Assembly: GCA_963663225.1 (NCBI GenBank)
Contig: OY760142.1
Span: forward strand, 448,001 to 512,000
Reading direction: 5' to 3'
DNA length: 64,000 nt
Origin: Nitrospirota bacterium
GTDB lineage: Bacteria > Nitrospirota > UBA9217
Shown: positions 3,427-22,169 of the stretch, in pieces
How positions within the stretch are numbered: the first letter of the stretch is position 1
Layout: every line of letters begins with the position of its first letter
Position numbers and translations under genes: made by a program
The notes under the pieces: generated by a model
Told to the model about the DNA's origin: nothing
Databases searched by the model: none
Seen by the model: the letters and a program-made list of their open reading frames with translations, nothing else

Positions 3427-3466
3427 GTGGTCGCGTATGATTATTTTTCCTTATACCATACGGCAC

Positions 3467-5227
3467 CTAAAAAGACAGCTCTTTAAGAAAAAGGTCTTCG
3501 AAACTTTTATCTCCAGCAAGCTCAATATATTGAATATTTTCCGCCACCTCTTGGGCGATTTTTCTCTCTTTAACAGATAATAGGGCATTTTGAGCCCCTA
3601 CGCCTGCAGCATTGCCCACAGGAACTATTTTTTCACAAAGGTCATCAGGCAACAACTTGATGCTTTTTAAGCTCTCGAATTTTAAATACATTCCGAATGC
3701 TCCCGCCAAAATTACTTTTGTGACGTCGGCTGTCTGCACTCCTGCTTTACGAAGCAATATTCTGATTCCCGTAGAGATGGCACTTTTTGCAAGCTGCAGT
3801 TTGCGAATATCTTGCTGTGTTATATAAATACTGCGTCTATCTGCTGTCTGCTCTTCTGGAACAAGCAGAAAAGCCAACGATCCCTCCTGTTCGATAATTC
3901 TTTTTTGTTGCAATTCGGAGGCATCGGAGGAAACAAGTCTGCCTGAAAAATCTATATTCTTATTTTGCAATAAACCGGCGACAGCATCAACAAGACCCGA
4001 ACCACATATACCTTGAGGTCTTACATCACCAATTACATGAAAGGAAACTTCCTTATTATTTATCTGTACACTGTCAATTGCACCGGCTTGAGCGCGCATG
4101 CCGCATGATATTGAATAACCTTCAAAAGCGGGTCCCGCCGCTGTCGAACAAGCCCAAACTTTTCCATTTGCAGCAAGAACAATTTCTCCGTTAGTACCGA
4201 TATCTATCGCGAGCACTATATCTTTTTCTTCCCATAACGGATGAGCCAACAGCATTCCAAGAGTATCTGCTCCGACAAAACCGGATACGCCCGGCAACCA
4301 GAAGATATTTGCCACGTTATTGACGAGAATGCCTGTTTTATATGAGCGATAGGAGACGGCATTGCGAATAATCGGCGTATAGGGATATCGTCCGATTGAA
4401 ACGGGCTGAACGCCCAGGAACAAATGTTCCATGCAGGGATTGCCAACAAAAACCAGGTCGTAGATGTCCTCACGGCTTATATTTGCCTGATCATTCGCTT
4501 TATCAATTAATCCGTTTATACAATCCACAATGGATGACTGGAGCCGTTCAAGTCCTGAGGGAACTTCTGTGGCGTAGGTGATGCGGGAAATAACGTCTGA
4601 TCCGTATTCAACCTGCGGGTTTAAAGAAGAAACCGCGGCACACAGGCGGCCATTCACAAGATTAAACAAATACCCTGCTATTGTCGTTGTTCCGATATCG
4701 AAGGCCATTCCGTAGAGGTTCGGACGTGTATCTCCTCGTTCTATCGCCACTATTTCATTATTTTGTATGACAGCAGTAAAAGGAATTTTTTCATGCACCA
4801 TCAAGGAAAACGACAACAGAATATCGATCTCTGCAATTATTCCTCGGCCGACATGAATTCCCGATCTCAAACAGAGATCTTCCCAAGTAAGCATGACGCT
4901 ATCAAACGACGGTGGGAAATATATCTTTTTAACTACAGGTGATAATTCGACTTTCTTTCCGCAGCCTTCTTGCAGACAAACAATACCCTTCTGACCACCC
5001 TTAAACAGATCTATTGCAATGTTTGATTCAACCGCAGTCTGGCAAGCCAGGACATCATTCCATTGCCCGTTACTCTTGATCCTTACCTGACACTTGCGGC
5101 AAACTCCTTTTTTTCCACAGGGGAAATCATGCTTCATAAGTCCTGCATTTAGCAACGCATCAATAAGAAGCGTCCCTTGCGGGGCAGAAATTTTATTGCC
5201 GTCACTATCTGTTATAGTAAAAACCAC
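3467..5227 (-). CDS. ATP-dependent reductive activator of corrinoid enzymes (RACE/RACo; 2Fe-2S plus ASKHA)
   Basis: N-terminal CGKKGVCRKC...LACQ; DIGTTT, DIGTNGEI, TAAGPAFEG, GICGSG, AGAFG and GNAA motifs. Confidence 0.92.
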   Translation of the reverse strand: MVFTITDSDGNKISAPQGTLLIDALLNAGLMKHDFPCGKKGVCRKCQVRIKSNGQWNDVLACQTAVESNIAIDLFKGGQKGIVCLQEGCGKKVELSPVVKKIYFPPSFDSVMLTWEDLCLRSGIHVGRGIIAEIDILLSFSLMVHEKIPFTAVIQNNEIVAIERGDTRPNLYGMAFDIGTTTIAGYLFNLVNGRLCAAVSSLNPQVEYGSDVISRITYATEVPSGLERLQSSIVDCINGLIDKANDQANISREDIYDLVFVGNPCMEHLFLGVQPVSIGRYPYTPIIRNAVSYRSYKTGILVNNVANIFWLPGVSGFVGADTLGMLLAHPLWEEKDIVLAIDIGTNGEIVLAANGKVWACSTAAGPAFEGYSISCGMRAQAGAIDSVQINNKEVSFHVIGDVRPQGICGSGLVDAVAGLLQNKNIDFSGRLVSSDASELQQKRIIEQEGSLAFLLVPEEQTADRRSIYITQQDIRKLQLAKSAISTGIRILLRKAGVQTADVTKVILAGAFGMYLKFESLKSIKLLPDDLCEKIVPVGNAAGVGAQNALLSVKERKIAQEVAENIQYIELAGDKSFEDLFLKELSF

Positions 5228-5413
5228 ATCTCACCTTTTCACGTTGGTTCTCTTATTATAGAGTGAAAACAACTATACACCGAAAACTGGATATATTATA
5301 TATAGATGTGGCTTTAGTCCACTTTCTATTTTTCATTGGCGTACCAAATTTACTTGATTATAAGAATTTATCCGATTTATGTTTACAATTTTACGTATCG
5401 TCCAGAGAATATA

Positions 5414-6097
5414 TTAACTGCATAAAAACTGATCTTCCGTAACTTCACCCCATGGAGGGATAATAATAAAATCTTCTTTTTCGTACGGGCCATGCATAAT
5501 TTTTTGGAAGTATTCTTGGCTCCCGAGAAACTCTGAATATTCTTTACCAAAAATCGCGCAATTTTCTTTGGTTCTGGCTTTCAAGCGTTCCGTATCGCCG
5601 ACCCCGGTATTAATAAACGATATATGCGTATAGTGCTGAAGTTGTTTTTTAACTACTCTAGTTGCCATTTCAATACCGTGCTTCGGAGCGTAGTGATTAT
5701 TGAGAATGCCCAACGGGTCTACCTCTGTAGCTATCCACCCCGGGGTCAAGTAATACGTCCCGGGCCTCGCTCGAAAATTCTCACGATAGGCCTTCTGTGA
5801 CCCCATAAAAATCGTAATACAGTCATGACACCGGGGAATCACGAGGTCCTGGCAACCTGCTTTTATTCCTTTAATTCCGCCGGAACAGAATCCATATCCC
5901 AGTACGACCCTGTTTGCTGAATTTCCAATACAATTTATTTCCTCCTGGATTAAGGAAGTCATTTTTTTAGGATTTTCGTGCAATCCCTGACCAAGAAAAC
6001 GTACCTGCACATCAGCGTCTTTCGCTACCATTTCAAGCTCGTGCTGAAAAATCCCACAAGCGATAACTACGGTTTTATAAAGTGGCTGTTTTGTCAT
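5414..6097 (-). CDS. DUF1638-family protein (corrinoid methyltransferase-associated)
   Basis: IACG, GLH.NP, LGYGFC, HDCI, TYYLTPGW and INTG motifs. Confidence 0.8.
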   Translation of the reverse strand: MTKQPLYKTVVIACGIFQHELEMVAKDADVQVRFLGQGLHENPKKMTSLIQEEINCIGNSANRVVLGYGFCSGGIKGIKAGCQDLVIPRCHDCITIFMGSQKAYRENFRARPGTYYLTPGWIATEVDPLGILNNHYAPKHGIEMATRVVKKQLQHYTHISFINTGVGDTERLKARTKENCAIFGKEYSEFLGSQEYFQKIMHGPYEKEDFIIIPPWGEVTEDQFLCS

Positions 6098-6282
6098 TTT
6101 ACATGCTAGGGATTTTATTATTAATTAAATCGGGCGACTATGGAGACAATGCAGGCGATATTTTAGTTAATGTCCTAGAAGAAATTACCGTTGTTGAAAA
6201 ACATCGCTGTTTTTTCTGCTTTGCATCTCATAGTCGCCCGTGATACTGAACAACTTATCGTATTTAGCTGATAATTAATTTA

Positions 6283-7677
6283 TTACTTAACCCCTAACGC
6301 CGGATTCGGGTAATTTCTGTTAAATACATGACTTACGAGCATCACAGCGAGAGGAGTACATAATGCTATATACATGTTGTCAATTCCGAAAGGATTTCCC
6401 ATGGCAAACCATAGCGTCGTAAATATTACACTCAACACCAAGCCAATGGTTGCACCTGCTTTATTTCCAATTTGCGGGCCATAGAACATAAACAGAGCAA
6501 TAACCGCAACACTGGTGCGCAGCGCTCTCGCAAAAAAAACCGTCTTGAGCAATCCAGGCACATACAGCGCAAATGGTATGGGAAGCAATCCAAGTATTAT
6601 CGCTAATACTCTCACAATTACCATTTGGCGCTTCTCATCGGGCTTTGCCAGCGGAATAATGAAATCTCGCATCACTAAAGCGGTTGCACCAAGATTACAT
6701 GCCAGAATTGTCACAAATGCCACTGCCAAAATTCCTGACGTAACAAGACCACCTAACCATGGATTCATATATCTGAGAAACTCGGGTAATGCCTGAACAC
6801 TCTTGATCGTTGGAAATAGCACCTTCGCTGCCAATCCAATGTAAGCCGCAATAAATCCTAACGGGAGAAGCCAGAAACTTGCAAAGATACTAGCTTTTTT
6901 GGCATCTTTGGCACTGCTCAAGGAACTTATACTTTGGATCACATACTGAGTGGAAAAAACTGCCCCTATGTTTCCGACTGTCCAGGCTATAATTTGTGGA
7001 ATTCCAATGCCTGACATATCAAAAAAGGAATCAGGCAATACTGAAACCGTCAGGTTTCGCTCATGGAGCAAACCCCACGCTACCAGTGCAGTGACAATAA
7101 TCGCAACATATTTTACAAAAAAATGAATTAAGTTCGCAAATCCGACGCCCCGAATACCGCCTGCAGCGACGCTGGCCGTTGCTAAAAGTGAAATTATGAA
7201 AACCGCGGGCGTCGTGGAAATGCCCAACACAGATGCAACCACAACAGCGCCGGCGGTGTAAGCAACGACATTAACGGTTATTAAGGCATAGACCATTATG
7301 GCCGAAACTACCATTCGAGCGTTATCACCATATTTTTTGCTGATAATCCCCGATATCGTATATTCGCCTGTTTCGTTGTATTTACCAGCCAAAAGGTATG
7401 CATACAAGAGGAAACCTACAGCCAGCGATATAAAGTTCCACGAAGCAGAGATGCCTTTCTCAAATGCTACCTGAGATGTTCCCAACGTTGACGCTGATGC
7501 TATAAACTCAGAGACCAGAAGAATGCCGATAATATATACACCCATTTGATTCTTTGCGCTCATAAAGCTATTCGTATTTTTTGCATATTTGACGGACCAC
7601 ATGCCAACGAGCGTAGTTATTATCAGATAAACGACTGCTATGCCAAATATTATACCTGCACCATCTACCGCATTCAT
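6283..7677 (-). CDS. Sodium:solute symporter family transporter
   Basis: Many transmembrane segments; SEFIASASTLG, YTISGII.KKYG, GGIRGV; start chosen at the ATG after GGAGG. Confidence 0.82.
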   Translation of the reverse strand: MNAVDGAGIIFGIAVVYLIITTLVGMWSVKYAKNTNSFMSAKNQMGVYIIGILLVSEFIASASTLGTSQVAFEKGISASWNFISLAVGFLLYAYLLAGKYNETGEYTISGIISKKYGDNARMVVSAIMVYALITVNVVAYTAGAVVVASVLGISTTPAVFIISLLATASVAAGGIRGVGFANLIHFFVKYVAIIVTALVAWGLLHERNLTVSVLPDSFFDMSGIGIPQIIAWTVGNIGAVFSTQYVIQSISSLSSAKDAKKASIFASFWLLPLGFIAAYIGLAAKVLFPTIKSVQALPEFLRYMNPWLGGLVTSGILAVAFVTILACNLGATALVMRDFIIPLAKPDEKRQMVIVRVLAIILGLLPIPFALYVPGLLKTVFFARALRTSVAVIALFMFYGPQIGNKAGATIGLVLSVIFTTLWFAMGNPFGIDNMYIALCTPLAVMLVSHVFNRNYPNPALGVK

Positions 7678-7965
7678 GAGTAACCTCCTCCACATCCATA
7701 AGGATGGTTCTGCTAGCGTATTATGCTAACAAAGTGTCGTATTGGACTACTCTTTAGCTGTTTGCAGATCGATACTTGCATTAATTAATAAAAAAATTGC
7801 AATACAGTACAAATAACCCTTGGGAAAGACTTTTCCACAACGAACGAAACTAATATTTTAAATACTCCTGATAGCCATTGCAACAATACCGTGATTCCGG
7901 TCCCTTTTTAAAATCCTATTTACGTCCTCCTTTCCCTATAAAATTATACTCTTAATATATTTAAT

Positions 7966-8002
7966 GTGTACCTAATGTATACAAAATGTATTAGTTTGTC
8001 AA
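7966..8002 (-). promoter_or_regulatory. sigma70 promoter TTGACA-N17-TACATT with TGTATACA operator
   Basis: -35 at 7997-8002, -10 at 7974-7979, palindrome at 7976-7983. Confidence 0.75.
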
Positions 8003-8289
8003 GGTTAAAATCGTCACTAAAGTTTTTTGATTTCTCTCGTTTGATTGACATTTGGGGGCATAATACGGCAGGGGCCAGACTCTTGGCAGGGCAATATGAT
8101 GTCTTTAAGCTAGTAAAACTAGTTTTTTACTTTCATACAAGTATTGTTCGCTTACGATGCATGATTATTTTTTACGCATGTATGGTACGAGAAGAGAAAT
8201 TCGGCAGGCAGGATTTGAAGTGAATTTTGACAATATCTGAGACACCAGTACGAATGTCCAGAAGACTTTTGAGATGTTGCCGAAGGATT

Positions 8290-8934
8290 TTATTGCTTAA
8301 ATATGTGGTGGTAATTTGCAGTATCCATTAAATCATGCATATTAGACTCGATGTGATAACGCATCTTATTTGAAGCCATTACGGGATCACCTGACAGAAT
8401 GGCATCAATAATCTGGAGGTGCTCTTCTAAAGAGCGATTTACTCTTCCAGGAATATATTCAGACGGATTGAGCAGCCGCACGATTTGGTTATTGAGGTTG
8501 TTCATAATAGTTATCAATCTTCTGTTGCCGGTGGCCTCAATAATAAGATGGTGCAAATCGTGAATATTCTCCGTATACGGTTGTTTTTTTTGTTCAAGAA
8601 GTTTTTTGGTTATTTTTTTTATTTCAAGAAGATCTTCTTTCTTAATTCTATTAACACATACTGCAGCTGCATAAGGCTCAAGCAGAAGACGTAGTTGAAA
8701 AATTTCATGAATATCAACGGGCGAAACAGTCGTTACTATCGCGCGATTATTGATAACGGTAATTAATCCTTCAGATTCGAGTCGAATCAACGCTTCGCGC
8801 ACAGGTGTGCGACTCATGTCGAGATTATCTACAAGCCACTTTTCGGTCACCGGGGAACCAGGTTTTAAGTCAGACTTGTAAATGGCATTTCTGATATAAT
8901 CATATGCAATTTTTACATTATTTTGACGTTTCAT
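8290..8934 (-). CDS. GntR-family (FCD) transcriptional regulator
   Basis: MSRTPVREALIRLESEGL HTH; FCD domain with H...GN and EH motifs. Confidence 0.92.
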   Translation of the reverse strand: MKRQNNVKIAYDYIRNAIYKSDLKPGSPVTEKWLVDNLDMSRTPVREALIRLESEGLITVINNRAIVTTVSPVDIHEIFQLRLLLEPYAAAVCVNRIKKEDLLEIKKITKKLLEQKKQPYTENIHDLHHLIIEATGNRRLITIMNNLNNQIVRLLNPSEYIPGRVNRSLEEHLQIIDAILSGDPVMASNKMRYHIESNMHDLMDTANYHHIFKQ

Positions 8935-8950
8935 CTTTTGTCTTCACCTA

Positions 8951-8985
8951 TGTACTAATGTAGCAAAATCATATGTATTTTTCAA
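8951..8985 (-). promoter_or_regulatory. Promoter TTGAAA-N17-TACATT with a variant operator
   Basis: Same layout as the promoters at 7966 and 12763. Confidence 0.55.
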
Positions 8986-9089
8986 TAACAATTGCTTTCA
9001 ATATTTTACCGGTAGGCAATGCGCCTACCTTATCCGGTTGTTATCGTACACAATGGTTTTAAAAAGCCCGCATGCATTTCTAATCTGTT

Positions 9090-9128
9090 AAAAAAAAAGA
9101 AGCAACGTCCGAAATTGCACGTTGCTTC
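9090..9128 (-). terminator. Intrinsic terminator after the methyltransferase operon
   Basis: GAAGCAACGT/ACGTTGCTTC stem plus T tract on the minus strand. Confidence 0.8.
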
Positions 9129-9181
9129 ACAATAGTTACAGAACATTTTGGAGGCTAGAATCGTCTATCCGCTCGATTCAC

Positions 9182-10555
9182 TTAAGAAAGTGTCTTCAAT
9201 CCCATTCCTTTAAGTTCTTTTTTGACCGTTTGATAAATATTCGCGTACTCTTCCTTCGGCTGGTGATGAATCAGGTCATAGCAGTCAGTAATATCATAGC
9301 CGACAAGCGGCTGCCTATTTTCAAATTTCTTTGCAATGCGGCCGAGAAGTTCGTTTCCGCCCTCCCGGTCAAATCCCTGCTCTATGACGGCATCTGATAC
9401 TTCTATCATCCACTCGGCCTCAACGGGTGTTTGGCCATGGTTTACCGTCGTGCGGCAGTGCCGGGGAGCATAGAGATTCATACCATTAATAGGAGCTTCC
9501 ACCGATTGCATTGCTCCTTCCCAGAGGCAAAGATCAGTTCCCGGCCCTGATGTCGGGATCACCCACCGCATGCAGATCGTGTTGCTATACCGGTTAAGCG
9601 CCTGATTGACCACGGAACGTGCCCAGTTTACATTCGGAACCAGAATCTGACGGCCATTCAGCATATGAACATGTTCTACGCCCGTATAGTTTATGTAGTC
9701 TCTATATGCAATCATTGCAGCAATGGGTTTCGCTATACCTTCTATTATTGCTCCTTCAATCCCACCGCAGAACCCGCCGATAATGGCAAAACTGCCGCTG
9801 AGCCTGAATGGTCCATATTCCTCGAACACGATTGCCGCGGAAAGCATGTTTTGCTCCATTTTCAGATCCGGCAACAATGAGAGCAGCACCCCGTCTGTTG
9901 GGCGAAGACCGTTGTCGGGATCTATCGTTCCAATCAGGTCTTCAGCCCTCGTATTTATCGGATAATACACTACGGCCAGACCGGGGCGGCCGGCCTTTCT
10001 GACCCCTTCACGCATCCAGTTGATCTGACGCCGGGACGCGTAAACTTCCATGGGAGAGCCCATAATTTCTCTTCCGTCGACATGCGTGAAATTGAATCCT
10101 TCGATAAAATCCGTTCTCTGTATCTGCGCAAAATTATGCACAACGAGCCCGGCAAGATCCTCCGTAAAGGGGGTATGATGCCCTGGGCATACATTCAGTT
10201 TTTCCCTGCCTTCAATTTTTCTTTGCTTCCACACACGCCTATCCCGTCCGCAACCCATAAGTATTTCTGTCGGTGCTTCCTTGATTGCCGTCAAAATTTC
10301 GTCTCGTGTCAAGGCGACTCTGCGGCGCGTGGTAAGACAATATATACCCATTGTTTCTAGAAATTCCAGAGCAGCCTCGAAAGCTCTTTCCGGGAGTCCA
10401 TCATCCACATTAATATAGCGATGCTTCTTAGGAACGGTGATACCGTATTTTTTTACCATCTTGGTGATGTTTTCATAAAACATCTTATCCCACTGTTTAT
10501 CTTCGATTTTTTCACCAGTCTGTGTTCTCTCAGCAATTTCCAACAGTGTTAACAT
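9182..10555 (-). CDS. MtmB-family corrinoid methyltransferase, no pyrrolysine (paralog 2)
   Basis: AGRPG, LKM, IGGFCGGIEG, SGPGT.LCL.E, TPVEA and CYDL...PKEEY pattern; 457 aa, no amber codon. Confidence 0.82.
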   Translation of the reverse strand: MLTLLEIAERTQTGEKIEDKQWDKMFYENITKMVKKYGITVPKKHRYINVDDGLPERAFEAALEFLETMGIYCLTTRRRVALTRDEILTAIKEAPTEILMGCGRDRRVWKQRKIEGREKLNVCPGHHTPFTEDLAGLVVHNFAQIQRTDFIEGFNFTHVDGREIMGSPMEVYASRRQINWMREGVRKAGRPGLAVVYYPINTRAEDLIGTIDPDNGLRPTDGVLLSLLPDLKMEQNMLSAAIVFEEYGPFRLSGSFAIIGGFCGGIEGAIIEGIAKPIAAMIAYRDYINYTGVEHVHMLNGRQILVPNVNWARSVVNQALNRYSNTICMRWVIPTSGPGTDLCLWEGAMQSVEAPINGMNLYAPRHCRTTVNHGQTPVEAEWMIEVSDAVIEQGFDREGGNELLGRIAKKFENRQPLVGYDITDCYDLIHHQPKEEYANIYQTVKKELKGMGLKTLS

Positions 10556-10569
10556 GTAATCCTCCGTCC

Positions 10570-11238
10570 TTATTCAACCGATAATAGTTTTTTTGCCACT
10601 TCTACTGCTTCAATGGCGTCTTTTCCGTATCCATCAGCACCAATTTTGGCGGCATATTCTTTTGTGACAGGTCCCCCTCCAATCATTACTTTAAAACGAT
10701 CCCGAAGCCCCATACTTGCCAGGTCGTCAATAACTTCTCTCTGGTAAGGCATTGTGGTCGTTAAAAGCGAGGACAGTGCTATCATATCGGCATTTAGGTC
10801 TTTAGCTTTTTCAATAAATGTGGCACTCGGAACATCGACGCCAAGGTCTACAACCTGGAATCCGCCGGCTTTCAACATCGTGGATACGAGATTTTTGCCT
10901 ACGCTGTGCACATCGGCCTGCACCGTTCCTACGATGATAATTTTTTTCCTTTGAGCGTCCGCTTTTGATATGTTTTTTTCCAGCACTTTGCTTACCGTAT
11001 CCATCAGGTCGCCGGATATGACCAATTGCGGCAAATAGTATTCGCCTGAATCGAATTTCTCTCCTACGACGATGGCGGCATCTGCAATGGCATACCGAAT
11101 TGCCACTGATGGGTCAACACCAGCCGCCAGCACTTTTTCAGCCGCCGCTACTGCGTCTTCTTCATTCAGGTCGATAATCGCCGACTTCAATGCGTCCAGC
11201 AGTGTCCGTTCTTTTTCCGATAATTTTTTCGCATCCAT
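10570..11238 (-). CDS. Methyltransferase cognate corrinoid protein (MtmC/MtbC-like)
   Basis: DVHSVGKNLV (DxHxxG), DLGVDV, SSLLTTT, IGGGP and IGADGY motifs. Confidence 0.93.
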   Translation of the reverse strand: MDAKKLSEKERTLLDALKSAIIDLNEEDAVAAAEKVLAAGVDPSVAIRYAIADAAIVVGEKFDSGEYYLPQLVISGDLMDTVSKVLEKNISKADAQRKKIIIVGTVQADVHSVGKNLVSTMLKAGGFQVVDLGVDVPSATFIEKAKDLNADMIALSSLLTTTMPYQREVIDDLASMGLRDRFKVMIGGGPVTKEYAAKIGADGYGKDAIEAVEVAKKLLSVE

Positions 11239-11256
11239 AATTCAAACCCTCCTGTT

Positions 11257-13045: not shown

Positions 13046-13618
13046 TTATGTATTGCCTTTTAAATAAATGTCAGTGTCAATACATTGCACGCCAATGTTT
13101 TTCATATCAAGAATATTGGCGTCCGCGACTTCCTTTGTCTGTGCAGATGCGGCATCAGTGACTAATATAACCTCGTAATCGAGTGCCACTCCATCGAATA
13201 CTGTTGTTCTCACGCAAACCGGATATTGAGTGCCGCAGACCACGATTGTTCGTATTCCGAGTCTGCGCAATATAAAATCCAGTTCAGTATTCATAAAGCT
13301 GCTGTACCGGTTTTTCATGATTCTATATTCACCCGCCAGCGGCTTAAGCGCCTCAACGATTTCACATCCTTTGGTTCCGGGCACGCAATACTTTTTACCG
13401 TTTAAAAAAGCTTTCTGACGTGTTATTTCTATGTCGGATCCATCTTCGCGATATTCTCTCATTATGTAGATAACCGGCATTTTTTGCTCTCTAAATCGAT
13501 TGAGAAGCTTTTGAATTTCCGGGATGGTGGCCATAGCACCGGCTATGCATGCCGGCGCACCCGGCAAAACGAAATCATTCTGCATATCTACAATAATCAA
13601 AGCACTCTTATTAGGCAT
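13046..13618 (-). CDS. Isochorismatase-family cysteine hydrolase
   Basis: ALIIVDMQNDF, KNRYSSF and VCGTQYPVCVRTT (Asp-Lys-Cys triad). Confidence 0.9.
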   Translation of the reverse strand: MPNKSALIIVDMQNDFVLPGAPACIAGAMATIPEIQKLLNRFREQKMPVIYIMREYREDGSDIEITRQKAFLNGKKYCVPGTKGCEIVEALKPLAGEYRIMKNRYSSFMNTELDFILRRLGIRTIVVCGTQYPVCVRTTVFDGVALDYEVILVTDAASAQTKEVADANILDMKNIGVQCIDTDIYLKGNT

Positions 13619-13672
13619 TAGATTCTCTCCATGTTTGTGCAATATTTTCGCGGAATATAAAGAAATCTATTT

Positions 13673-14581: not shown

Positions 14582-14602
14582 TTCTTATACCTCCGCAGGC
14601 CG

Positions 14603-17038
14603 TCACACGTTATGCGAACCAGACTCATGCTCTGTTCGTTTGATAATATCTTCCTGTAAAACGGGATCTATTGTTGTGAATAGTACGCTAAAACCTGCAA
14701 CTCTTACGGTAAGTGTAGGGTAGCGTTCTGGATGTTTCATTGCCTCTCTCAGGGTCTGCGCATCTATTACATTAAACTGAACATGCTGCCCTTTCATTAT
14801 AAAATATGTTTTTACCAAGTCGCATATTTTTGAAAAACATTCACCCTGAAGGAGCGAAGGATTAAGTTTTACATTGAGAAGCGTACTTCCTATTGCTTTC
14901 TGAGGATCAAGTTTTACAACGGATTTAAGCAAGGCAGTCAACCCGCTTTTATCCATTCCATGTGAGCAGGATACCCCTCCATCCGCTATTACGGTGCCCT
15001 TTTTTCTTCCATCCGGCGTAGCTCCGGTCCAACGGGCAAAAAGCACATTTGTTGCTATTGTGTAAAGCGCTATATTGTATTTACCGCCTCTGGGATTTTT
15101 ATGCTTGGCCGCTTCTATACAGAGTTGATTTAATACGCGGTTTCCGAGCGAATCAACGTAATCTATGTCGTTGCCATATTTGGGGACTTGATTGATCAAC
15201 TTCAGCCGGAAGCTCTCTGATCCTTCATAATCAGCCAACAAGGTTTTTTTGAAGTCATACCACGTAAGTGCCCTATCTTCATAAATATACTTTTGAATGA
15301 CTGCCAACGAGTCTGCGACATTCGCTACCCCGACCGCCTCCAAGGTTGTAAAATTATACCTGGCTCCGCCCTCAAGTGAACTTTTTCCATTGTGCATGCA
15401 ACCATCTATTAAAACAGATTCAAAGGGCGTGGGACAGAGGGCTCCATGCAATCGGTCCAAAATATTGTCGCAGGCTATTTGTAAACCCAGATAATGTCCG
15501 AGTTGTTTAAAATATGCATTCAGGAAATCATCGAAAGTTGATGCATTACTCACATCGCCCGTATTAAAATCATATTGTTTCTTCAGTACGGGATCGTATC
15601 CATTGAAAATCGTAAGCTCCAGAATTTTAAGCAGATTTAAAAACCCACCGGTTAACCATGGCTCTGTAACACCTGGGACCGTACTTTCGGTACAGCCGAC
15701 TACAGCGTAATTGCGCGCGTCTTCGATGGTATAGCCGAGTTGAAGCATATTCGGTATAAGCACTTCATCATTAAACATTGCTGGCATTCCACCGCCATAC
15801 GAAATCACCCGAAGAGCATGATTCAAAAAATCTTCTGGACACCCTGAGAACCAACGCATTGAGAGCGATGGTTGTGGAAGACCAACCCGTGCGGTAGTTT
15901 CCAAACAAAGGTGGGAAAGCTCATTTACTGCACTCGTTCCCTCCTTAGTTTGTCCGCCTAAGATCAGGTTCTGAAACATAGGATATCCGCCAAAAGCAAC
16001 CGTTGATATTTTATCTCTAACCTTATTGATTTCGAAAAATTTCAGCCAAAGGCATTGCACGAGTTCTTCTGCGTTTTTTTCAGATGCAATCCCGTTGTCC
16101 AGACTGTGCCTGTAGGACGGATACATGTATTGATCGAATCGACCCGGTGATACGCTATGCCCGTTTGATTCAAGGTGCAGTATTAAGTGCACGAACCAAA
16201 AACTCTGCAGTGCCTCCCAAAATGATCGCGCAGGATATGCGGGGACTATTTTGCAATTTTGCGCTATATCATACAGCTCTTTTTTCCTGCGTTCATCTTT
16301 TTCAGCTTCTGCCTTTTTTTCAGCCAATATTGAAAATCGCTTGGCAAAATTTATTGCCGCAGAGCATACGATGGCTACAGCATCGTAATAATTTGCCTTG
16401 TCTACGTAATCTTTATCATCTATGCTCAGCGTCTTTTTCTGTCGTTCCGCTTGTTCAATAAAATATTGAAGACCTTTTTTTATACACTGCTCATAATCTA
16501 CAACAACATGCCCTACGCCAGATCTAAAAGCTGTCAGTATAAATATTAAATCTTCTGCTGCTTCCTTTGCTTGTTCTGGAATTACTCTCAAAGCATTGCT
16601 TGTTATGGTGTTTACATCCCACTTCTTATATATTTCCCGGAGCTTTTCTTTAGTTTCTTCACTTATATAAAATTTATCAGCAACTCTGCCATTAAATGAG
16701 TCCAGCTCATCAATGACAAATTTCATATCATACTCAGGAAATATTTGACAACCCCGTGGTTTTCCAGCGTAACTGCCGACAATAAGTTCATCATCATTAA
16801 TACAGATGTTCATATTGTTTAATATTTTTTCAAGGGCTTTAGCTCTCCGTATGATATACGGTTGGCCGGCAGTTTCGAAATAACTCGCTGTTATTAGCAA
16901 TGCCCGATCTGCAAAAATTTCGGGCACCGTATTGAGCATAAACTCTCTGAGCTTTCTGATCCTATCAGAGACACTATCTGTTATCTTATTCCTACTAGAT
17001 TTGTTTTCTAAAGAATCATGAGATGTAAGGGTTGTCAT
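14603..17038 (-). CDS. Glycyl radical enzyme, diol/glycerol dehydratase-like, substrate unknown
   Basis: GVGHV, ESNGHS, FGGYPMFQNL, Cys loop GCTE, glycyl motif VRVAGFS. Confidence 0.92.
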   Translation of the reverse strand: MTTLTSHDSLENKSSRNKITDSVSDRIRKLREFMLNTVPEIFADRALLITASYFETAGQPYIIRRAKALEKILNNMNICINDDELIVGSYAGKPRGCQIFPEYDMKFVIDELDSFNGRVADKFYISEETKEKLREIYKKWDVNTITSNALRVIPEQAKEAAEDLIFILTAFRSGVGHVVVDYEQCIKKGLQYFIEQAERQKKTLSIDDKDYVDKANYYDAVAIVCSAAINFAKRFSILAEKKAEAEKDERRKKELYDIAQNCKIVPAYPARSFWEALQSFWFVHLILHLESNGHSVSPGRFDQYMYPSYRHSLDNGIASEKNAEELVQCLWLKFFEINKVRDKISTVAFGGYPMFQNLILGGQTKEGTSAVNELSHLCLETTARVGLPQPSLSMRWFSGCPEDFLNHALRVISYGGGMPAMFNDEVLIPNMLQLGYTIEDARNYAVVGCTESTVPGVTEPWLTGGFLNLLKILELTIFNGYDPVLKKQYDFNTGDVSNASTFDDFLNAYFKQLGHYLGLQIACDNILDRLHGALCPTPFESVLIDGCMHNGKSSLEGGARYNFTTLEAVGVANVADSLAVIQKYIYEDRALTWYDFKKTLLADYEGSESFRLKLINQVPKYGNDIDYVDSLGNRVLNQLCIEAAKHKNPRGGKYNIALYTIATNVLFARWTGATPDGRKKGTVIADGGVSCSHGMDKSGLTALLKSVVKLDPQKAIGSTLLNVKLNPSLLQGECFSKICDLVKTYFIMKGQHVQFNVIDAQTLREAMKHPERYPTLTVRVAGFSVLFTTIDPVLQEDIIKRTEHESGSHNV

Positions 17039-17247
17039 TTATCCCTCCACTATACAAGCATGCGACGTTCAGGCTCGTATTTGATTACAGATTCATAGAC
17101 ATAATCGTTTGCAAATATTCGTTTAAAAAAATCGCCGAATAGTTTACATTTATTCCACCCTGAGTAGCAATCGTCCTCATGCCGACCAGCCTCGCTTTTC
17201 TTACTGTTACTCAGCTATAGACCAAGACGAATTTGCCTTATGACTTA

Positions 17248-18267
17248 TTAGATGGCTGCCGCCTCTTTCGCTTTCGCAAGATCATAAGCAACCTCGATAC
17301 AAATATGCTCTTGACCTTCCGTGCATTGCCGCTTGCCTATCTCCTTGATAATATCTCGTGGATCTACACTATACTTAGCTCCTGCTCGTTGTGCAAACAA
17401 AAGAAAGCTAGAATAACATCCAGCGTAGCCGAGCATGATACGATCATTATCCAACTCCATTGGTCTAACCATCAAAGGCTTTAAATATTTGTCTCCTACA
17501 TCCATTGCCTTGTACAAATCAATTCCCGTTTCTATCCCTTTTCGATCACAGACTGCCACAAGCACCTCTGTCGGACAGTTCCCCGCGCCTGCACCGAATC
17601 CCTTCAAACAAGCATCGATATATTCTGCACCTGCCTCGATCGCAGCCATTGAATTGGCCACTGCAAGTTGAAGATTGTTATGTCCATGGAAGCCTATTCC
17701 AACGTCCAGTGCTTTACGCATTGCAGATATTCGTTCGAAAACCTGTTCTGGCAGCATATAGCCGCCGCCGTCAAGCAAATACACGACTTCTGCACCGTAG
17801 GACTCGGAAAGCCTGGCATAATGGACCGTATCTTCAACACTAATCACTGAAGCACAGGGCAAGACGGCTCTCGGTTGCATTCCTAATTGTTTTGCCATCT
17901 TTATGTGCTGTTCTGCAATATCACTCTCTGTAATTTGGGTGCATAATCGAGCAACTTTGACGCCATAATCTACCGCCATTTGCAGTTCTTCCCGTGTGCC
18001 AATACCAGGCAGAATAATAATTCCTAACTTTGTCTTCTTAACCGCCTGGGATACTGCTTTGATATAGTCTATATCGCGGGCTGGGGCAAAGCCATATTGA
18101 AATGACGATCCAGCCAAACCGTTTCCATGTCCAAATTCAATTACGTCTACACCTATTTCATCAACTTTTCCTGCTAGCTGTGCCATTTGTTCCGGCGATA
18201 GTTGATGGCTTACGGCATGCATTCCATCCCGCATTGTGACATCCAGGATCCGAATTTTTTTTGACAT
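17248..18267 (-). CDS. dmpG: 4-hydroxy-2-oxovalerate aldolase
   Basis: DVTMRDGMH, HGNGLAGSS, GFHGHNNL, GAGAGN and GYAGCYSSFL motifs; start at the ATG after GGAGG. Confidence 0.9.
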   Translation of the reverse strand: MSKKIRILDVTMRDGMHAVSHQLSPEQMAQLAGKVDEIGVDVIEFGHGNGLAGSSFQYGFAPARDIDYIKAVSQAVKKTKLGIIILPGIGTREELQMAVDYGVKVARLCTQITESDIAEQHIKMAKQLGMQPRAVLPCASVISVEDTVHYARLSESYGAEVVYLLDGGGYMLPEQVFERISAMRKALDVGIGFHGHNNLQLAVANSMAAIEAGAEYIDACLKGFGAGAGNCPTEVLVAVCDRKGIETGIDLYKAMDVGDKYLKPLMVRPMELDNDRIMLGYAGCYSSFLLFAQRAGAKYSVDPRDIIKEIGKRQCTEGQEHICIEVAYDLAKAKEAAAI

Positions 18268-18281
18268 CGTATGCCTCCAGG

Positions 18282-19166
18282 TTAGTTTAAGGTTTGTTTT
18301 AAAAGATTTCGCGCTAGACCATCGCCGACAGCCATTGCAGCGCATGTCATGATATCAAGATTTCCACTATATTTTTGCAAATAATCACCTGCTCCCTCTA
18401 CTTCGATCATGACTGTCACCTTGTCGCCGTCAAACGTGGGAGGAATTTTAAGTCGATACCCTGGCACATACTGTTGAACAGCTTTTATCATATCTGCTAC
18501 AGATCGAGTTATGCCCGCTTCGTCTTTATTTTCTACCTTCGCGTAAATTATGCAGTTCATGGTCATTGGTGGAGTTGCCGGATTAAGCAGGATAATTGCT
18601 TTCCCTTTTTCTGCGCCTCCTATCTGAACTATCCCTTTTGCCGTTGTTTGTGTAAACTCATCAATATTCTGGCGAGTGCCCGGGCCGGCACTTTTGCTTG
18701 CGATTGTAGATACTATCTCTGCGTATGGAACGGCGCATACGCGGCTGATTGCTTTTACGATTGGTATAGTAGCCTGTCCGCCACAGGTAATTAAATTAAC
18801 ATTCTGTGCAGAAAGGTGTTCATCAAGATTAACAACCGGGATTACATAAGGTCCGACAGCTGCCGGGGTCAAATCCACCGCGATCTTTCCCGCTTCCTTG
18901 AGAAGAGGTGCATGTTTTGTATGCGGTGCGGCACCTGTCGCGTCAAAAACAATTTTAATATTCTTTTGCTGAATAACTGAATCTATCCCAGCGGCCGATG
19001 TAGCTATACCCTCCTGCTTCGCAATTTTTAAGCCCTCCGACTCTGGAATTATTCCTGCCATTAACTTCAAGTCAAGGTACCGGCTTCGTCGTAATATTTT
19101 AAACATAAGATCGATACCGATGTTGCCCGGACCAATAATAGCTGCTTCAACTTTTAGGTTATCCAT
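18282..19166 (-). CDS. dmpF: Acetaldehyde dehydrogenase (acylating)
   Basis: [30 protein letters not shown] and GNLDIMT motifs. Confidence 0.93.
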
Positions 19167-19322
19167 TGCTTATTTCTCCAGTATTGTTTGACTTCTTTAT
19201 AACAAGTTTGCCAGATGGATAAAAAATGATTGCTGCCTCAACATTAACGACGTGGCGACTCAAATTTCAGTACCGCATGTTAACATTGAGACAGCAATGA
19301 CACATTTGAATGCAGTTCCGTA

Positions 19323-20681
19323 CTAAGGAGAAAGTTCCTCTAAAACTCTTCCTTTTGTTTCTTCTCCCAATATTCCTATAGCAACAGCTGTTATTATGAA
19401 ACAGCCGGCGCCAAAAATAAATACTCCCGTATTTCCTACGTGCGGCAAAATTGCTCCAATCAGAGCAATGCCTAGTAACGACCCTATGCGACCTACTCCT
19501 GAAGCAAAGCCTGATCCAGTTGTTCTTGCTCTCGTCGGATAAAGTTCTGGAGTATACGCATAAACCGTTGACCATGTACCCATCATGAAAAATTGCATAC
19601 AAGATCCAAATATGATCAGGGTTGACATACTCCCGGCATTACCGTAGAGATAAGAAAAGAATGCACATCCAAGAAGTGCGACTATTACAGAGGGTTTACG
19701 ACCAATTTTTTCAACTGTGTAGGCTGCCGTTATAAATCCCGGTATGCCGGCTAACGAAATTGCAATTGTGTAGTAAACGGATTTCGTGACCGAGAAACCA
19801 GCTGCCTGCAATAACGTACTCAACCATGTCGTTAATGCATAATAACCTAAACAAAATCCAAACCACATTATCCATACCATTACCGTTCTTTTTGCATATC
19901 CAGGCGCCCAAAGCATGAGAAATGAAAATTTTTGCTCTTTTTTACGATGCGAGTATTCTACTTCTGGAATCGGAGGAAGTTCTTTTCCATAGGCCTTCTT
20001 TACTTTATTCTCAACCAGGCTCATAACTTTTTCCGCCTCGTCATGTCGGCCTACATCATCCAGCCATCTGGCAGATTCCGGTACTATTCTTCGAAAGAAA
20101 AAAATAAATATAGCCGGAATTGCTTGAGCAATAAATACCCAACGCCAACCGCCTATTGGCAAAATGAAATATGCCTCTAAACCTGCAAAAATAAAGCTGA
20201 TGGGCCACAGTCCTTCAAGTAGGGCAATATAACGGCCTCGGTTCTTGGCTGGAATATACTCAGATACTAAAGCTTGTCCTATTGGAAATTCCATTCCTAT
20301 ACCAAAACCTAGTATTACTCTGTATATTCCTAGTTCAAATGGCGTGCTTGCAATTGAACAGAGAAAACTAGCCGTTCCCCATATGAGCATACTTACTTGG
20401 AATATTGTGCGACGCCCGTAACGGTCTGCTGCCATGCCCGCGAGCGCTGCACCTACAGCCATGCCCCAAAAACTCGCACTTGCTAAAACACCTGCTTCCG
20501 CTGTGCTTAAGCCAAATTCAGTCTTGATAGATCCCAAAAGAAATGTAAGGGAAGCTAAGTCAATCGCATCAAACAGCCAACAGGTAACGATTGCACTAAA
20601 TATTAACTTCTGATAAAAAGTTAATGGCAACCTTTCCATCCGCTGTGCAATTCGAAGATTTATTGTCTGCGTTTGCGGCAT
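19323..20681 (-). CDS. MFS transporter
   Basis: GMAADRYGRR, PESARWL and YTPELYPTRAR motifs. Confidence 0.92.
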   Translation of the reverse strand: MPQTQTINLRIAQRMERLPLTFYQKLIFSAIVTCWLFDAIDLASLTFLLGSIKTEFGLSTAEAGVLASASFWGMAVGAALAGMAADRYGRRTIFQVSMLIWGTASFLCSIASTPFELGIYRVILGFGIGMEFPIGQALVSEYIPAKNRGRYIALLEGLWPISFIFAGLEAYFILPIGGWRWVFIAQAIPAIFIFFFRRIVPESARWLDDVGRHDEAEKVMSLVENKVKKAYGKELPPIPEVEYSHRKKEQKFSFLMLWAPGYAKRTVMVWIMWFGFCLGYYALTTWLSTLLQAAGFSVTKSVYYTIAISLAGIPGFITAAYTVEKIGRKPSVIVALLGCAFFSYLYGNAGSMSTLIIFGSCMQFFMMGTWSTVYAYTPELYPTRARTTGSGFASGVGRIGSLLGIALIGAILPHVGNTGVFIFGAGCFIITAVAIGILGEETKGRVLEELSP

Positions 20682-20941
20682 TATCTTTTCTCCTTAATTT
20701 TTTCAATTAGTTGTATAAAAAATGGTAATATACAACACATCAAGGGATGCTTCTACACTCTTATCAAAACATCTGTTACTTTGAATGCTATTTCTTAAAA
20801 AATAAATATCTTAAATTTCAGACTTTACCTCCTTTCTGATAGACCGAAACACTTTTTTCTGTTTTATCTGTTCTGGCGGTTTATCATGAAGCATTTATGG
20901 TCTAACAGTTTTATTGCATTTACTTCTAACAATCATTTACT

Positions 20942-20973
20942 GTATACTGTATACAATATTGTATACAGTATAC
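20942..20973. promoter_or_regulatory. Perfect 32-bp palindrome of GTATAC units, putative GntR operator
   Basis: GTATACTGTATACAAT-ATTGTATACAGTATAC, just downstream of a minus-strand TTGACA at 21000-21005. Confidence 0.75.
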
Positions 20974-21521
20974 GCATACAATACACTTTTATTCTTATTT
21001 GTCAAGTCTCTTAGTCTAGAGAAAGTTGTCAATATGTGCACGTTAAATTATTTAATTAAATCAATCGATTATTAAAAAAACGGGGCTTGCCAGGAAGGAT
21101 TAAAATTAACTAACTACGCCGAACATATTTCATCAGGTTGAGGATTGGAAGAAATTTTTAGGTTTTTTTGTTGCGTCTGGGTGCTTCTGTATCTCTATAT
21201 TCCTTAATAGCTCCTTTCAGTAAATCGTATTAATAAACAAGGTGGTCTTTAAAGCGAAAGCTCTGCTATGAGTTCCAGCATAAAGCTACCGTTAACATTT
21301 CACCAAGTCTGTACCAATATACAAATTAGTAAATTACAAGCAGTATGAGTTGTTCCACTATGGATTCAGTGCACTCTTTCACTTAACAAGTAACCGAAAA
21401 TACTATCTATGAAGTACTCTGATAATATTTTCGATGCCATAATTTATTGAGAAAATTGATTATCATTGTAATGTAAAATCTATTCTGCTAAAATAAAAGA
21501 ACTTATAACGGAGGACAAAGC

Positions 21522-22169
21522 TTGGGGAAAATATTAAATAATGGGCAATTTGCTTATAAATATATTAGGGATGCAATTTGCCGGTGGGATTTAAAACCAG
21601 GTTCTCCTATCACAGAAAAATGGATCCGAGAAAATCTTGATATGAGCCGTACCCCAGTGCGTGAAGCATTGATCCGCCTTGAATCCGATGGCTTGATCAC
21701 GGTTACTAACAATCGTGCAACAGTAACTACCGTTTCTTTCGAAGACATTAATGATATTTTCCGTCTGCGTCTTCTTCTTGAGCCTTATGCAGCCAGTGCC
21801 TGTATCAAACGGATTGCTAAAGAAAAACTCATCGAAATTCGTAAGGCAACCGTTGAATTGCTTCCTCAGAAAAGCCAAACATTTGATGAAAATATCCATG
21901 ACCTTCATCGCTTTATTATTGATTCAACGGGAAACAAAAGATTAATCGCCTTCATGAAGACGCTTGATTACCAGATCATGCGGCTCTTACACGTTTCGGC
22001 ATATATACCAAATAGAGTAACGCATTCTTTAGAAGAGCATCTTCCAATTATTGACGCTATTTTAGCAGATGATCCAGCAATGGCAGAAAAGCAAATGAAA
22101 ATCCATATTGAGTCTAATATGAAAGATGCATTAGAGTCCGCAAATTTTCTTTTTTTATTTAAAACATAA
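21522..22169 (+). CDS. GntR-family (FCD) regulator, paralog of 8290-8934
   Basis: Shares DLKPGSP, NLDMSRTPVREALIRLES, LRLLLEPYAA, ENIHDLH and SLEEHL with the other copy. Confidence 0.92.
   Translation: MGKILNNGQFAYKYIRDAICRWDLKPGSPITEKWIRENLDMSRTPVREALIRLESDGLITVTNNRATVTTVSFEDINDIFRLRLLLEPYAASACIKRIAKEKLIEIRKATVELLPQKSQTFDENIHDLHRFIIDSTGNKRLIAFMKTLDYQIMRLLHVSAYIPNRVTHSLEEHLPIIDAILADDPAMAEKQMKIHIESNMKDALESANFLFLFKT

Follow-up and report, generated by a model that had tools for sequence, protein, structure and literature searches.

Does one anaerobic pathway, or do two, account for the genes gathered between positions 3467 and 22169 of a 64,000-nucleotide stretch of DNA from a Nitrospirota bacterium? 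This stretch, called the window below, runs from position 448001 to 512000 of OY760142.1, one contig of 3.26 Mb in assembly GCA_963663225.1, and the island in question places genes for a glycyl radical enzyme (GRE) and for the DmpG aldolase and DmpF dehydrogenase beside genes for corrinoid-dependent methyl transfer. A first-pass annotation had proposed a single substrate that is demethylated and/or hydrolysed at an amide, undergoes elimination by radical chemistry and is then cleaved by the aldolase. Pfam and NCBIfam profile scans, from which the gene identities given here derive, recovered all of the genes that it had listed, each in its place and with the identity named. The annotation had not recognised the combination as a described pathway, and a full-text literature search likewise returned no matching publication. 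The single-substrate proposal itself found no support, as the modules are separate in the foreign loci surveyed. With moderate confidence, we read the island as two self-contained anaerobic modules that act on different imported substrates and are both under related repressors. In this reading, module A comprises MFS-DmpF-DmpG-GRE-activase-hydrolase with the repressor GntR2, and module B comprises MtmB1-corrinoid protein-MtmB2-GntR1 plus SSS-DUF1638-RACE (Table 1).

The two modules occur apart in other genomes

The survey of GRE loci used one genome per species and yielded 33 loci, one of which was that of the window's own lineage and 32 of which were foreign. No gene for MtmB, the corrinoid protein, RACE, DUF1638 or SSS was found within 10 kb in any of the 32 foreign loci, so the co-occurrence of this GRE clade with non-pyrrolysine (non-Pyl) MtmB, which a single pathway had led the first-pass annotation to look for, was not observed. 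The co-occurrence with dmpFG was confirmed. Upon defining the clade by a GRE identity of 52% or more to that of the window (17 foreign loci), we found that DmpF-DmpG directly adjoined GRE-activase in 15 of them; the remaining two begin less than 260 bp from the GRE and therefore hold no upstream DNA. The MtmB triplet, in turn, stood without GRE or DmpFG on both foreign contigs that carry it (L040 and L044; 8.7 and 5.9 kb, with short flanks). The modules do not share an importer, a promoter or a regulator, and the active-site signature of the window's GRE is that of clade members in genomes with no methyltransferase module nearby. A joint pathway was thus not supported, because co-occurrence was missing in foreign loci, importer, promoter and regulator were separate, and the GRE had an ordinary clade signature. 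The outcome that the first-pass annotation had named as refuting its proposal, modules that do not occur together elsewhere, was largely borne out.

The GRE and its DmpFG partners

The GRE contains the C-terminal glycyl radical motif (Pfam Gly_radical, 99.9 bits), and RVAGFS with Gly782 was invariant across 26 clade sequences. Its Cys449-Thr-Glu451 aligned to Cys433-Val-Glu435 of glycerol dehydratase (GD) and was kept in all 33 loci; a CXE loop carrying the catalytic Cys is the rule for GRE eliminases according to sections of a 2026 GRE review (PMC13450708). The protein belongs to the PFL2/GD subfamily (TIGR01774, 763.5 versus a cut-off of 678.2), with its cognate activase adjacent, and the nearest solved structures were GD (1r8w, 731.8 bits) and propanediol dehydratase (PD; 5i2a, 687.4 bits), while the structures of HypD, HplG, HpyG, HpzG, CutC and IslA scored 404-481 bits. 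It fell below all named NCBIfam equivalog cut-offs, namely (score/cut-off) HypD 615.4/1100, CutC 493.9/1050, HpsG 559.9/1000, HpfG 554.8/1000, PRK09983 (PflD-type) 641.8/1109, IAD 437.8/1100, HPAD 345.2/1150 and PFL 162.8/994.2.

The active site was similar to those of GD and PD but not identical. In particular, the residues aligned to GD His164, His281, Ser282, Cys433, Glu435 and Tyr640 were kept, and the position of GD Tyr339 was occupied by Phe, as in PD. The full GD/PD set was not present, as GD His446-Asp447-Ser-Ala corresponded to Leu462-Thr463-Gly464-Gly465 in the window's GRE; Asp447 of GD has an active-site role. The signature F355, C449, E451, L462, T/P463, G464, G465 and Y659 was common to all 17 foreign clade loci, with Pro463 in two Desulfosporosinus loci and Thr463 elsewhere in the clade, and it was absent from all 15 more distant GRE loci. 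Because the Leu-Thr-Gly-Gly signature is common to the clade loci, the window's GRE is a typical member of a clade that is without characterised function and linked to DmpFG, and not a plain glycerol or propanediol dehydratase. The small Thr-Gly-Gly loop may give a carboxylate room and donor groups. A second GRE, 34% identical to the island GRE, is encoded elsewhere in the same genome (contig 1638107-1640467, minus strand).

By name, the clade hosts belong to several different phyla (Desulfitobacterium, Desulfosporosinus, Syntrophobacter, Desulfovibrio, Desulfocapsaceae, Victivallales and rumen Clostridia). In ten clade loci, the neighbours were carboxylate importers and unrelated regulators (CdaR-type, GntR, AraC and two-component). 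TRAP DctPQM was found in L003, L008, L016 and L017, and MFS in L006 and L007, the two Desulfosporosinus loci in which an MFS 72% identical to that of the window adjoins the GRE cassette. The cassette thereby differs from the GD and PD systems, as its partners are carboxylate importers and DmpFG rather than DhaT/PduP-type genes or microcompartment shells. DmpFG also lay beside one distant GRE (L019, 41% identity) and was absent from the other 14 distant loci, and the coupling may extend to a second GRE clade. In this L019 region (8857-14300), the GRE has a different active-site signature, Tyr-Asn-Ala-Gly, and Gln takes the position of Tyr659. Protein P0078, called as one reading frame on a public contig of 4.7 kb and joining the first 214 residues of a DmpG homologue to a GRE homologue, was considered as a natural fusion of the two enzymes; the last ~125 DmpG residues are missing and 45 residues at the joint are unmatched, and we rejected it as probably a deletion, assembly or gene-calling artefact.

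Both DmpF and DmpG passed their equivalog cut-offs, and the aldolase aligned over its full length to 1nvm and 8ih7, as expected of the DmpFG/BphIJ/MhpEF group. For DmpG, the start at 18267 was preferred over that of the longest reading frame, since GGAGG precedes its ATG and the alignments to both structures begin at residue 27; the gap to DmpF is then 14 nt. The alignment to 1nvm showed that Arg17 and His21, which we take to be catalytic, the presumed metal-binding residues His200/His202, and Tyr291 were all kept, and that Leu88/Leu90, presumably forming the hydrophobic aldehyde pocket, were Ile/Leu. That DmpG keeps these catalytic and hydrophobic positions suggests that its aldehyde is a small alkyl one, which would make 4-hydroxy-2-oxopentanoate or -hexanoate the probable aldolase substrate. 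Unlike in the aerobic meta-cleavage pathways, no genes for a meta-cleavage dioxygenase, hydrolase or hydratase were present here; the host is an anaerobe with Wood-Ljungdahl genes, and the upstream enzyme is a GRE.

The hydrolase gene lies between the two modules, 30 nt after the activase gene. Its nearest structure, 3hu5, is itself of unknown function, and alignment to 3hu5 and 3irv placed Asp, Lys and Cys at family-typical positions, the putative triad being assigned by eye. No counterpart adjoined the GRE or MtmB genes in any foreign locus scanned; the sole foreign homologue, 35% identical, lay ~9 kb from the GRE in L019. Among these loci, the hydrolase is specific to the window's island.

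In the route that we propose for module A, the MFS carrier, the presumed importer of the GRE substrate, would bring in an organic acid, and the activase would install the glycyl radical on the GRE. The GRE would act as a 1,2-eliminase with the Cys, Glu and His set of GD and without its His-Asp pair, removing water, or a different beta leaving group, adjacent to a carbon that bears a hydroxyl, to give a 4-hydroxy-2-oxopentanoate-type acid. In the simplest form, it would eliminate the C3 group of a 2-hydroxy acid that also bears a 4-hydroxyl, yielding a 4-hydroxy-2-oxo acid. DmpG, which we place after the GRE, would split this acid into pyruvate and acetaldehyde or propionaldehyde, and DmpF would convert the aldehyde into acyl-CoA. 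The island-specific hydrolase would probably free the acid from an amide or carbamoyl precursor. As candidate substrates of the island enzymes in general, we weighed 5-deoxypentonates, pentonates, 6-deoxyhexonates, threonate, 3,6-anhydrogalactonate, carnitine-type amines, creatinine/N-carbamoylsarcosine, trigonelline and pantothenate, and no one of them stands out.

In its sections on GRE functions, the 2026 review lists GD, PD, HpfG, HypD, HpyG and HpzG as C-O eliminases, CutC as a C-N eliminase, IslA/IseG and HpsG as C-S eliminases, and HplG, YbiW and PflD as isomerases, and it describes entire GRE clades as still without assigned function; the GRE-DmpFG cassette is absent from the functions listed in these sections (PMC13450708). 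A full-text search, with most subscription-journal papers beyond its reach, found no paper describing a pathway that pairs a GRE with DmpG-type aldolase genes, nor one describing a pathway that joins corrinoid demethylation to a GRE. As seen in the search listings, papers that mention both corrinoid demethylation and GREs treat them as rival routes for choline or carnitine. Within the reach of this search, the combination is undescribed, and both of its halves are variants of known systems without characterised function. The substrate of the GRE cassette, if found, would add a new GRE reaction, and the cassette would be the first oxygen-independent route into the 4-hydroxy-2-oxovalerate aldolase/acyl-CoA branch, familiar from the aerobic breakdown of aromatic compounds.

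The methyltransferase module

Both MtmB reading frames are open without an internal stop and hence contain no in-frame UAG (pyrrolysine) codon, so both proteins are of the non-Pyl type. They share only 29% identity. MtmB1 belongs to a large, widespread and unnamed environmental family (68-83% identity). The corrinoid protein, at 223 aa, was the shortest and best-scoring of the 12 B12-binding matches in the genome and scored just under the cut-off of TIGR02370 (194.4 versus 215.3). RACE was under the equivalog cut-offs of AcsV (368.7 versus 800) and RamA (131.9 versus 500), and DUF1638 had no NCBIfam family match.

Upon comparison with the two foreign contigs, we found the gene order SSS-MtmB1-corrinoid protein-MtmB2 in L040 (identities of 55%, 84%, 84% and 88%) and MtmB1-corrinoid protein-MtmB2 in L044 (68%, 62% and 75%). 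L040 additionally carries a PPDK-like gene and one for a Glu/Leu-type dehydrogenase, and L044 encodes an aldehyde:ferredoxin oxidoreductase together with ThiS. The MtmB side of the comparison draws on few loci because the MtmB1 searches returned so few genomes: a metagenome scan with MtmB1 alone gave one locus, phylum-wide searches gave 2/401 and 1/401 genomes, and the order-level search gave 1/17. Additionally, an MtmB-family gene was present in two of five GRE-cassette genomes checked (one at 37% and one, of the Pyl type, at 33%). In the Syntrophobacter genome, the MtmB-family gene lies on another contig than the GRE cassette, and the Desulfosporosinus genome holds a Pyl-type MtmB homologue with one TAG.

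The Pfam and NCBIfam scans found no methylcorrinoid:tetrahydrofolate or methylcorrinoid:coenzyme M methyltransferase in the island. An MtbA-type methyltransferase was also absent, as the only URO-D match of the genome scores like HemE. AcsD, an AcsE-like gene and a second MeTr-like gene are located elsewhere in the genome; a methyl sink exists in these genes, through which the methyl group can, by prediction, reach the Wood-Ljungdahl pathway. The second MeTr-like gene, which is not located with the acetyl-CoA synthase genes, encodes a pterin-binding methyltransferase (contig 1073694-1074281, L053:1480-2262; 122.6 bits versus a cut-off of 259) and is a candidate for off-loading methyl groups from the island corrinoid protein.

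In our scheme for module B, the SSS carrier, presumed to import the methylated substrate, would take up a small N-methylated compound, and MtmB1 would transfer the methyl group(s) of this compound to the corrinoid protein in its Co(I) state. Two roles are conceivable for MtmB2, that of a further methyltransferase I, acting on a second methyl, or that of an off-loading methyltransferase. RACE would re-reduce the oxidised corrinoid, the DUF1638 protein would presumably have a part in the same scheme, and the methyl would enter the Wood-Ljungdahl pathway via a MeTr-like enzyme encoded elsewhere in the genome.

In excerpts of a report of 2026, MtqB, which acts on tetramethylammonium and choline, is given as the sole non-Pyl MtmB whose function has been demonstrated, and the function of the remaining non-Pyl MtmBs is unknown according to its authors (PMC13044021). 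In parts of another study, strain DCMF on dichloromethane showed strong induction of a non-Pyl MtmB, for which the authors ventured a role as methyltransferase II (PMC9768040). Module B resembles MtqB/MtqC of Methanococcoides methylutens, as described in the former excerpts, in combining a non-Pyl MtmB member with a cognate corrinoid protein (PMC13044021). It differs in that two MtmB paralogs flank one corrinoid protein as a conserved triplet (MtqB being compared by description), in its bacterial host, in the SSS importer and RACE gene linked to the triplet, and in lacking an MtbA-type methyltransferase. The MtgB/MtgC/MtgA glycine betaine and MttB-superfamily systems, as outlined in parts of the DCMF study, share with it a methyltransferase I, corrinoid protein, activase and importer, and pass the methyl to tetrahydrofolate and the Wood-Ljungdahl pathway (PMC9768040). 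Unlike in those systems, the island family is PF05369 MtmB and not MttB, the importer is SSS and not BCCT, and no MtgA-type gene is present in the island. As a paired bacterial version with its own importer and repressor, MtmB1-corrinoid protein-MtmB2 offers a tractable entry to the non-Pyl MtmB family.

Shared regulation and the case for a single pathway

Several observations weigh against two separate modules and bear on the alternative of a joint pathway, in which one N-methylated, hydroxylated (amide) compound is demethylated and/or hydrolysed and then passed to the GRE and DmpFG. We consider this alternative unlikely. The most direct argument for it concerns the promoters. A perfect -35 TTGACA was present at all three island promoters, as would fit coupling, and the shared operator proposed in the first-pass annotation was verified, as the palindrome TGTATACA lies over or just after the -10 of all three. 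The window contained five such sites versus 0.63 expected, and none of 100 shuffles reached five; four of the five lie in island promoter regions (7976, 12774, 20948 and 20960), and no more than 33 sites occur in the entire 3.26 Mb genome. Across ~45 nt, the promoters of SSS and MtmB1 were nearly identical. Against a joint pathway, the three promoters are separate and hence define separate transcription units, and they are accompanied by two importers and two regulators. A further copy of the palindrome, 70 nt upstream of DmpF in L015, was taken as a chance occurrence, as it is a single site with no GntR nearby. The MFS-DmpFG-GRE operon also has a ~290-nt untranslated leader (20682-20977, minus strand) between promoter and MFS start, which gave no Rfam match.

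The repressors provide the second argument. As had been noted from the two GntR paralogs, related repressors span both halves of the island; GntR1 and GntR2 share 66% identity (137/209) and near-identical recognition helices, and both have the FadR-subfamily architecture of an N-terminal GntR helix-turn-helix and a C-terminal FCD domain. Operators of FadR-subfamily GntR proteins are palindromes of the GT..AC type, and the island palindrome is the putative operator of these related repressors. Six GntR homologues have a longest contig equal in length to that of MtmB1 homologues and are on this basis presumed to lie on MtmB1-bearing contigs, and the MtmB1 ortholog in L040 is preceded by the same promoter/operator design. 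Because of these presumed shared contigs and the L040 promoter, the GntR family and its operator seem native to MtmB1 methyltransferase cassettes. Foreign GRE cassettes carry other regulators, and any GntR found there was only 27-28% identical. In a tree of 56 GntR homologues, GntR2 and three environmental sequences formed a fully supported clade, which argues against a joint pathway in that it stood apart from GntR1, the third paralog described below and all six presumed MtmB1-linked GntRs. The GRE operon of the window's lineage may therefore be under a specialised offshoot of the methyltransferase-cassette GntR family, which would fit some functional tie. The regulatory kinship of the modules is real, but it is no demonstration of a common substrate.

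A third GntR/FCD paralog, 67% identical to GntR2, is located 5 kb left of the window (contig 442610-443245, L050:14604-15251, minus strand), and the GntR family appears to be locally expanded beyond the stretch analysed. Its neighbours are an MFS gene, beta-carbonic anhydrase, TonB and a BtuB-like receptor, and a palindrome site lies at L050:14188, between the paralog and a MarR gene.

The physical arrangement points in both directions. The modules share a strand and lie side by side in a single low-GC island that is restricted to one lineage, the hydrolase gene between them is unique to the island, and the entire island was unbroken in ~97%-identical relatives from other studies: single contigs of ~17.6 kb from two runs of different studies span 3404-20971 at ~3% difference, and pieces from two further studies span both modules, the MtmB1-hydrolase junction included. 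The island is stable within the species; this stability is uninformative on function. The independence of the MtmB triplet, moreover, rests on two foreign loci with short flanks. These points are set against the absence of co-occurrence in the foreign GRE and MtmB loci and against a GRE signature equal to that of clade members without a methyltransferase neighbour. HpyG and HpzG, N-methyl-cis-4-hydroxyproline dehydratases that sections of the 2026 review give as the only characterised GREs with N-methylated substrates (PMC13450708), offer a precedent for a joint pathway; both are far more distant from the window's GRE (8id1, 447 bits, and 8iof, 412 bits) than is GD (732 bits).

Genes beside the cassette in some hosts also bear on the simple order of GRE and DmpG. 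An FSA/TalC-like aldolase gene (FSA, fructose-6-phosphate aldolase; ~110 bits versus a cut-off of 246) and an iron-type alcohol dehydrogenase gene (Fe-ADH) stand beside the cassette in L004 (5773-7712), L009 (4539-6328) and L016 (2539-3870 and 7280-7978), directly upstream of DmpF-DmpG-GRE, in hosts that are differently named (Feifaniaceae, Victivallales and Limiplasma). PfkB kinase and DHDPS-like aldolase genes were also found in L004 and L009. None of the FSA-like, Fe-ADH, PfkB and DHDPS-like neighbours reached an NCBIfam cut-off, and their best names there pointed to no named pathway. These genes hint at a sugar-derived substrate in the three hosts and at a more complex route in some hosts. 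A likeness exists to the YbiW/PflD 'anhydroglycolysis' described in sections of the review, where a GRE makes a deoxy-keto compound that is cleaved by a neighbouring aldolase (PMC13450708), and the FSA-like genes of the three loci recall the fructose-6-phosphate aldolase of that system. Unlike YbiW/PflD, the GRE is constantly partnered here by a class II pyruvate aldolase and the aldehyde dehydrogenase that belongs to it, and the importers point to a carboxylate and not a sugar phosphate. YbiW (8yjn, 502 bits) and PflD (8yjo, 543 bits) were also more distant from the window's GRE than GD.

A bolder variant of the joint pathway has the GRE eliminate a methylated amine, which is then consumed by the MtmB-like enzymes. 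In its fullest form, which we regard as quite unlikely, both modules would be one regulon for N-methylated hydroxy(amino) acids or amides; the GRE would eliminate where pyridoxal phosphate enzymes cannot, feeding DmpFG with a 4-hydroxy-2-oxo acid, the non-Pyl MtmB pair would harvest the N-methyl before the GRE or from the released amine, and GntR1 and GntR2 would sense successive intermediates. If true, such a joint regulon would be the first pathway coupling corrinoid demethylation to glycyl-radical chemistry and would give bacterial non-Pyl MtmB pairs their first function. With one repressor family and one operator type across both modules, the island is a natural experiment, and therefore the ligands of the three paralogous repressors could name both substrates at once.

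Other routes for the GRE cassette

Within the two-module reading, the substrate class assigned to the GRE can itself be disputed. A small-diol route is improbable; in it, the GRE would act as a dehydratase on 1,2-propanediol, ethylene glycol or glycerol, and DmpF would simply take the place of the CoA-acylating aldehyde dehydrogenase that is usual there. DmpG would then feed in hydroxy-aldehydes from 2-keto-3-deoxy sugar acids, or would be a structural partner only. GD and PD are indeed the structures nearest to the GRE, and six GD active-site residues are kept, with the Phe of PD at the Tyr339 position; nevertheless, the His446-Asp447 pair of GD, also found in PD, is replaced clade-wide with Leu-Thr (Leu-Pro in two loci), followed by Gly-Gly. 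Fe-ADH lies beside the cassette in L004, L009 and L016, whereas no alcohol dehydrogenase was found in the window's island or in L003, L005, L007, L008 and L017. The partners are carboxylate importers (TRAP and MFS) and not diol facilitators, DmpG is retained and keeps its aligned catalytic residues in the window copy, and no microcompartment shell genes were found among the island and neighbour genes scanned.

Equally doubtful is an organosulfonate route, in which the GRE would be a C-S lyase releasing sulfite from a hydroxy-sulfonate acid for sulfite respiration: many clade hosts are named as sulfate/sulfite reducers (Desulfitobacterium, Desulfosporosinus, Desulfovibrio, Desulfocapsaceae and Syntrophobacter), TRAP importers are found beside the clade's genes, as in the known isethionate and 2,3-dihydroxypropane-1-sulfonate systems, and known GRE C-S lyases share the CXE chemistry according to sections of the review (PMC13450708), but the scores for HpsG and HpfG lie far below their cut-offs of 1000, IslA (7kq3) reached only 404 bits, rumen Clostridia, Victivallales and Limiplasma are likewise among the hosts of the clade, and no sulfite reductase or sulfite exporter gene was found among the neighbours scanned.

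Origin, gene content and B12 uptake

The GC content of the island was 0.42 compared with 0.494 for the genome, and 1.7% of equal-sized genome windows were equally low. A GRE of the island type was found in only 2 of 64 genomes of the host family, the window's genome and one of the same genus; a third family genome matched at the GRE search threshold, with a GRE only 31% identical. MtmB1 was similarly found in 2 of 401 genomes of the phylum, again the window's genome and one of the same genus. Because of the low GC content and these two narrow distributions, the stretch appears to be a laterally acquired catabolic island. The ends of the relatives' contigs, at 3404 in a riboswitch and at 20971 in an operator palindrome, were considered as ends of a mobile element; we rejected this and read them as assembly breaks at repeats.

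The features of the island and of the adjoining B12 uptake genes are listed in Table 1. GntR2 is the only plus-strand gene among those listed for the island.

Table 1. Genes and control elements in and beside the island (window positions)
Feature	Position	Strand	Evidence or remark
Second cobalamin riboswitch	334-526	minus	70.7 bits; before BtuB-like receptor
BtuD, corrinoid ABC uptake	583-1356	minus	Pfam ABC_tran
BtuC, corrinoid ABC uptake	1340-2305	minus	Pfam FecCD; best NCBIfam name BtuC, below equivalog cut-off
BtuF, corrinoid ABC uptake	2293-3144	minus	Pfam Peripla_BP_2; best NCBIfam name BtuF, below equivalog cut-off
Cobalamin riboswitch upstream of btuF	3255-3485	minus	Rfam RF00174, 74.3 bits versus gathering score 31.5
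RACE/RACo-type reductive activase of corrinoid proteins	3467-5227	minus	Pfam RACo_C_ter 270.8 bits, Raco_middle 188.9 bits, N-terminal Fer2 (2Fe-2S)
DUF1638 protein	5414-6097	minus	Pfam PF07796, 133.6 bits
SSS transporter (divergent sodium:solute symporter)	6283-7695	minus	Pfam SSF 52.1 bits
SSS-DUF1638-RACE promoter/operator	7943-8002 (promoter 8002-7974)	minus	TTGACA, 17 nt, TACATT; TGTATACA at 7976-7983 over -10
GntR1, FadR-subfamily repressor	8290-8934	minus	Pfam GntR + FCD
MtmB2, non-Pyl MtmB-family methyltransferase	9182-10555	minus	Pfam MtmB 211.5 bits (cut-off 25)
Corrinoid (B12-binding) protein	10570-11238	minus	Pfam B12-binding 95.5 bits, B12-binding_2 55.4 bits
MtmB1, non-Pyl MtmB-family methyltransferase	11257-12639	minus	Pfam MtmB 283.5 bits (cut-off 25)
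MtmB1-corrinoid-MtmB2(-GntR1) promoter/operator	12772-12800	minus	TTGACA; TGTATACA at 12774-12781
Isochorismatase-family cysteine hydrolase (amidase type)	13046-13642	minus	Pfam Isochorismatase 147.9 bits
Radical-SAM GRE activase	13673-14581	minus	TIGR02494 365.8 versus cut-off 174.35
GRE, predicted 1,2-eliminase type	14603-17038	minus	Pfam PFL-like + Gly_radical; TIGR01774
DmpG-type 4-hydroxy-2-oxovalerate aldolase	longest ORF 17248-18345; probable start 18267	minus	TIGR03217, 436 versus cut-off 286
DmpF-type acetylating acetaldehyde dehydrogenase	18282-19166	minus	TIGR03215, 438.5 versus cut-off 282.25
MFS organic-acid:H+ symporter	19323-20681	minus	Pfam MFS_1, Sugar_tr
MFS-DmpFG-GRE promoter	20938-21005 (promoter 21005-20978)	minus	TTGACA, 16 nt, TATTGT; downstream, four GTATAC hexamers in a 36-nt palindromic array at 20938-20973
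GntR2, FadR-subfamily repressor	21522-22169	plus	Pfam GntR + FCD; divergent from GRE operon

The first-pass annotation had also counted adjacent B12 uptake with the island. BtuFCD does adjoin it but is a separate transcription unit with a cobalamin riboswitch of its own; as cobalamin riboswitches precede both btuF and the BtuB-like gene, uptake is controlled by B12 and not by the GntR proteins. The btuF riboswitch overlaps the 3' end of the RACE gene and is followed by a terminator-like hairpin with a 14-pair stem (3213-3182). The BtuB-like TonB-dependent receptor gene (window 2-316, minus strand) crosses the left window edge into L050:18448-19998, and its best names were B12 and heme receptors. 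To the right of the island, positions 22567-28148 contain ordinary Gram-negative housekeeping genes, namely a phospholipase A1, a glycogen/maltodextrin phosphorylase, an MlaA lipoprotein and an HpnI-type hopanoid glycosyltransferase, the last of which passed its equivalog cut-off (313.4 versus 310).

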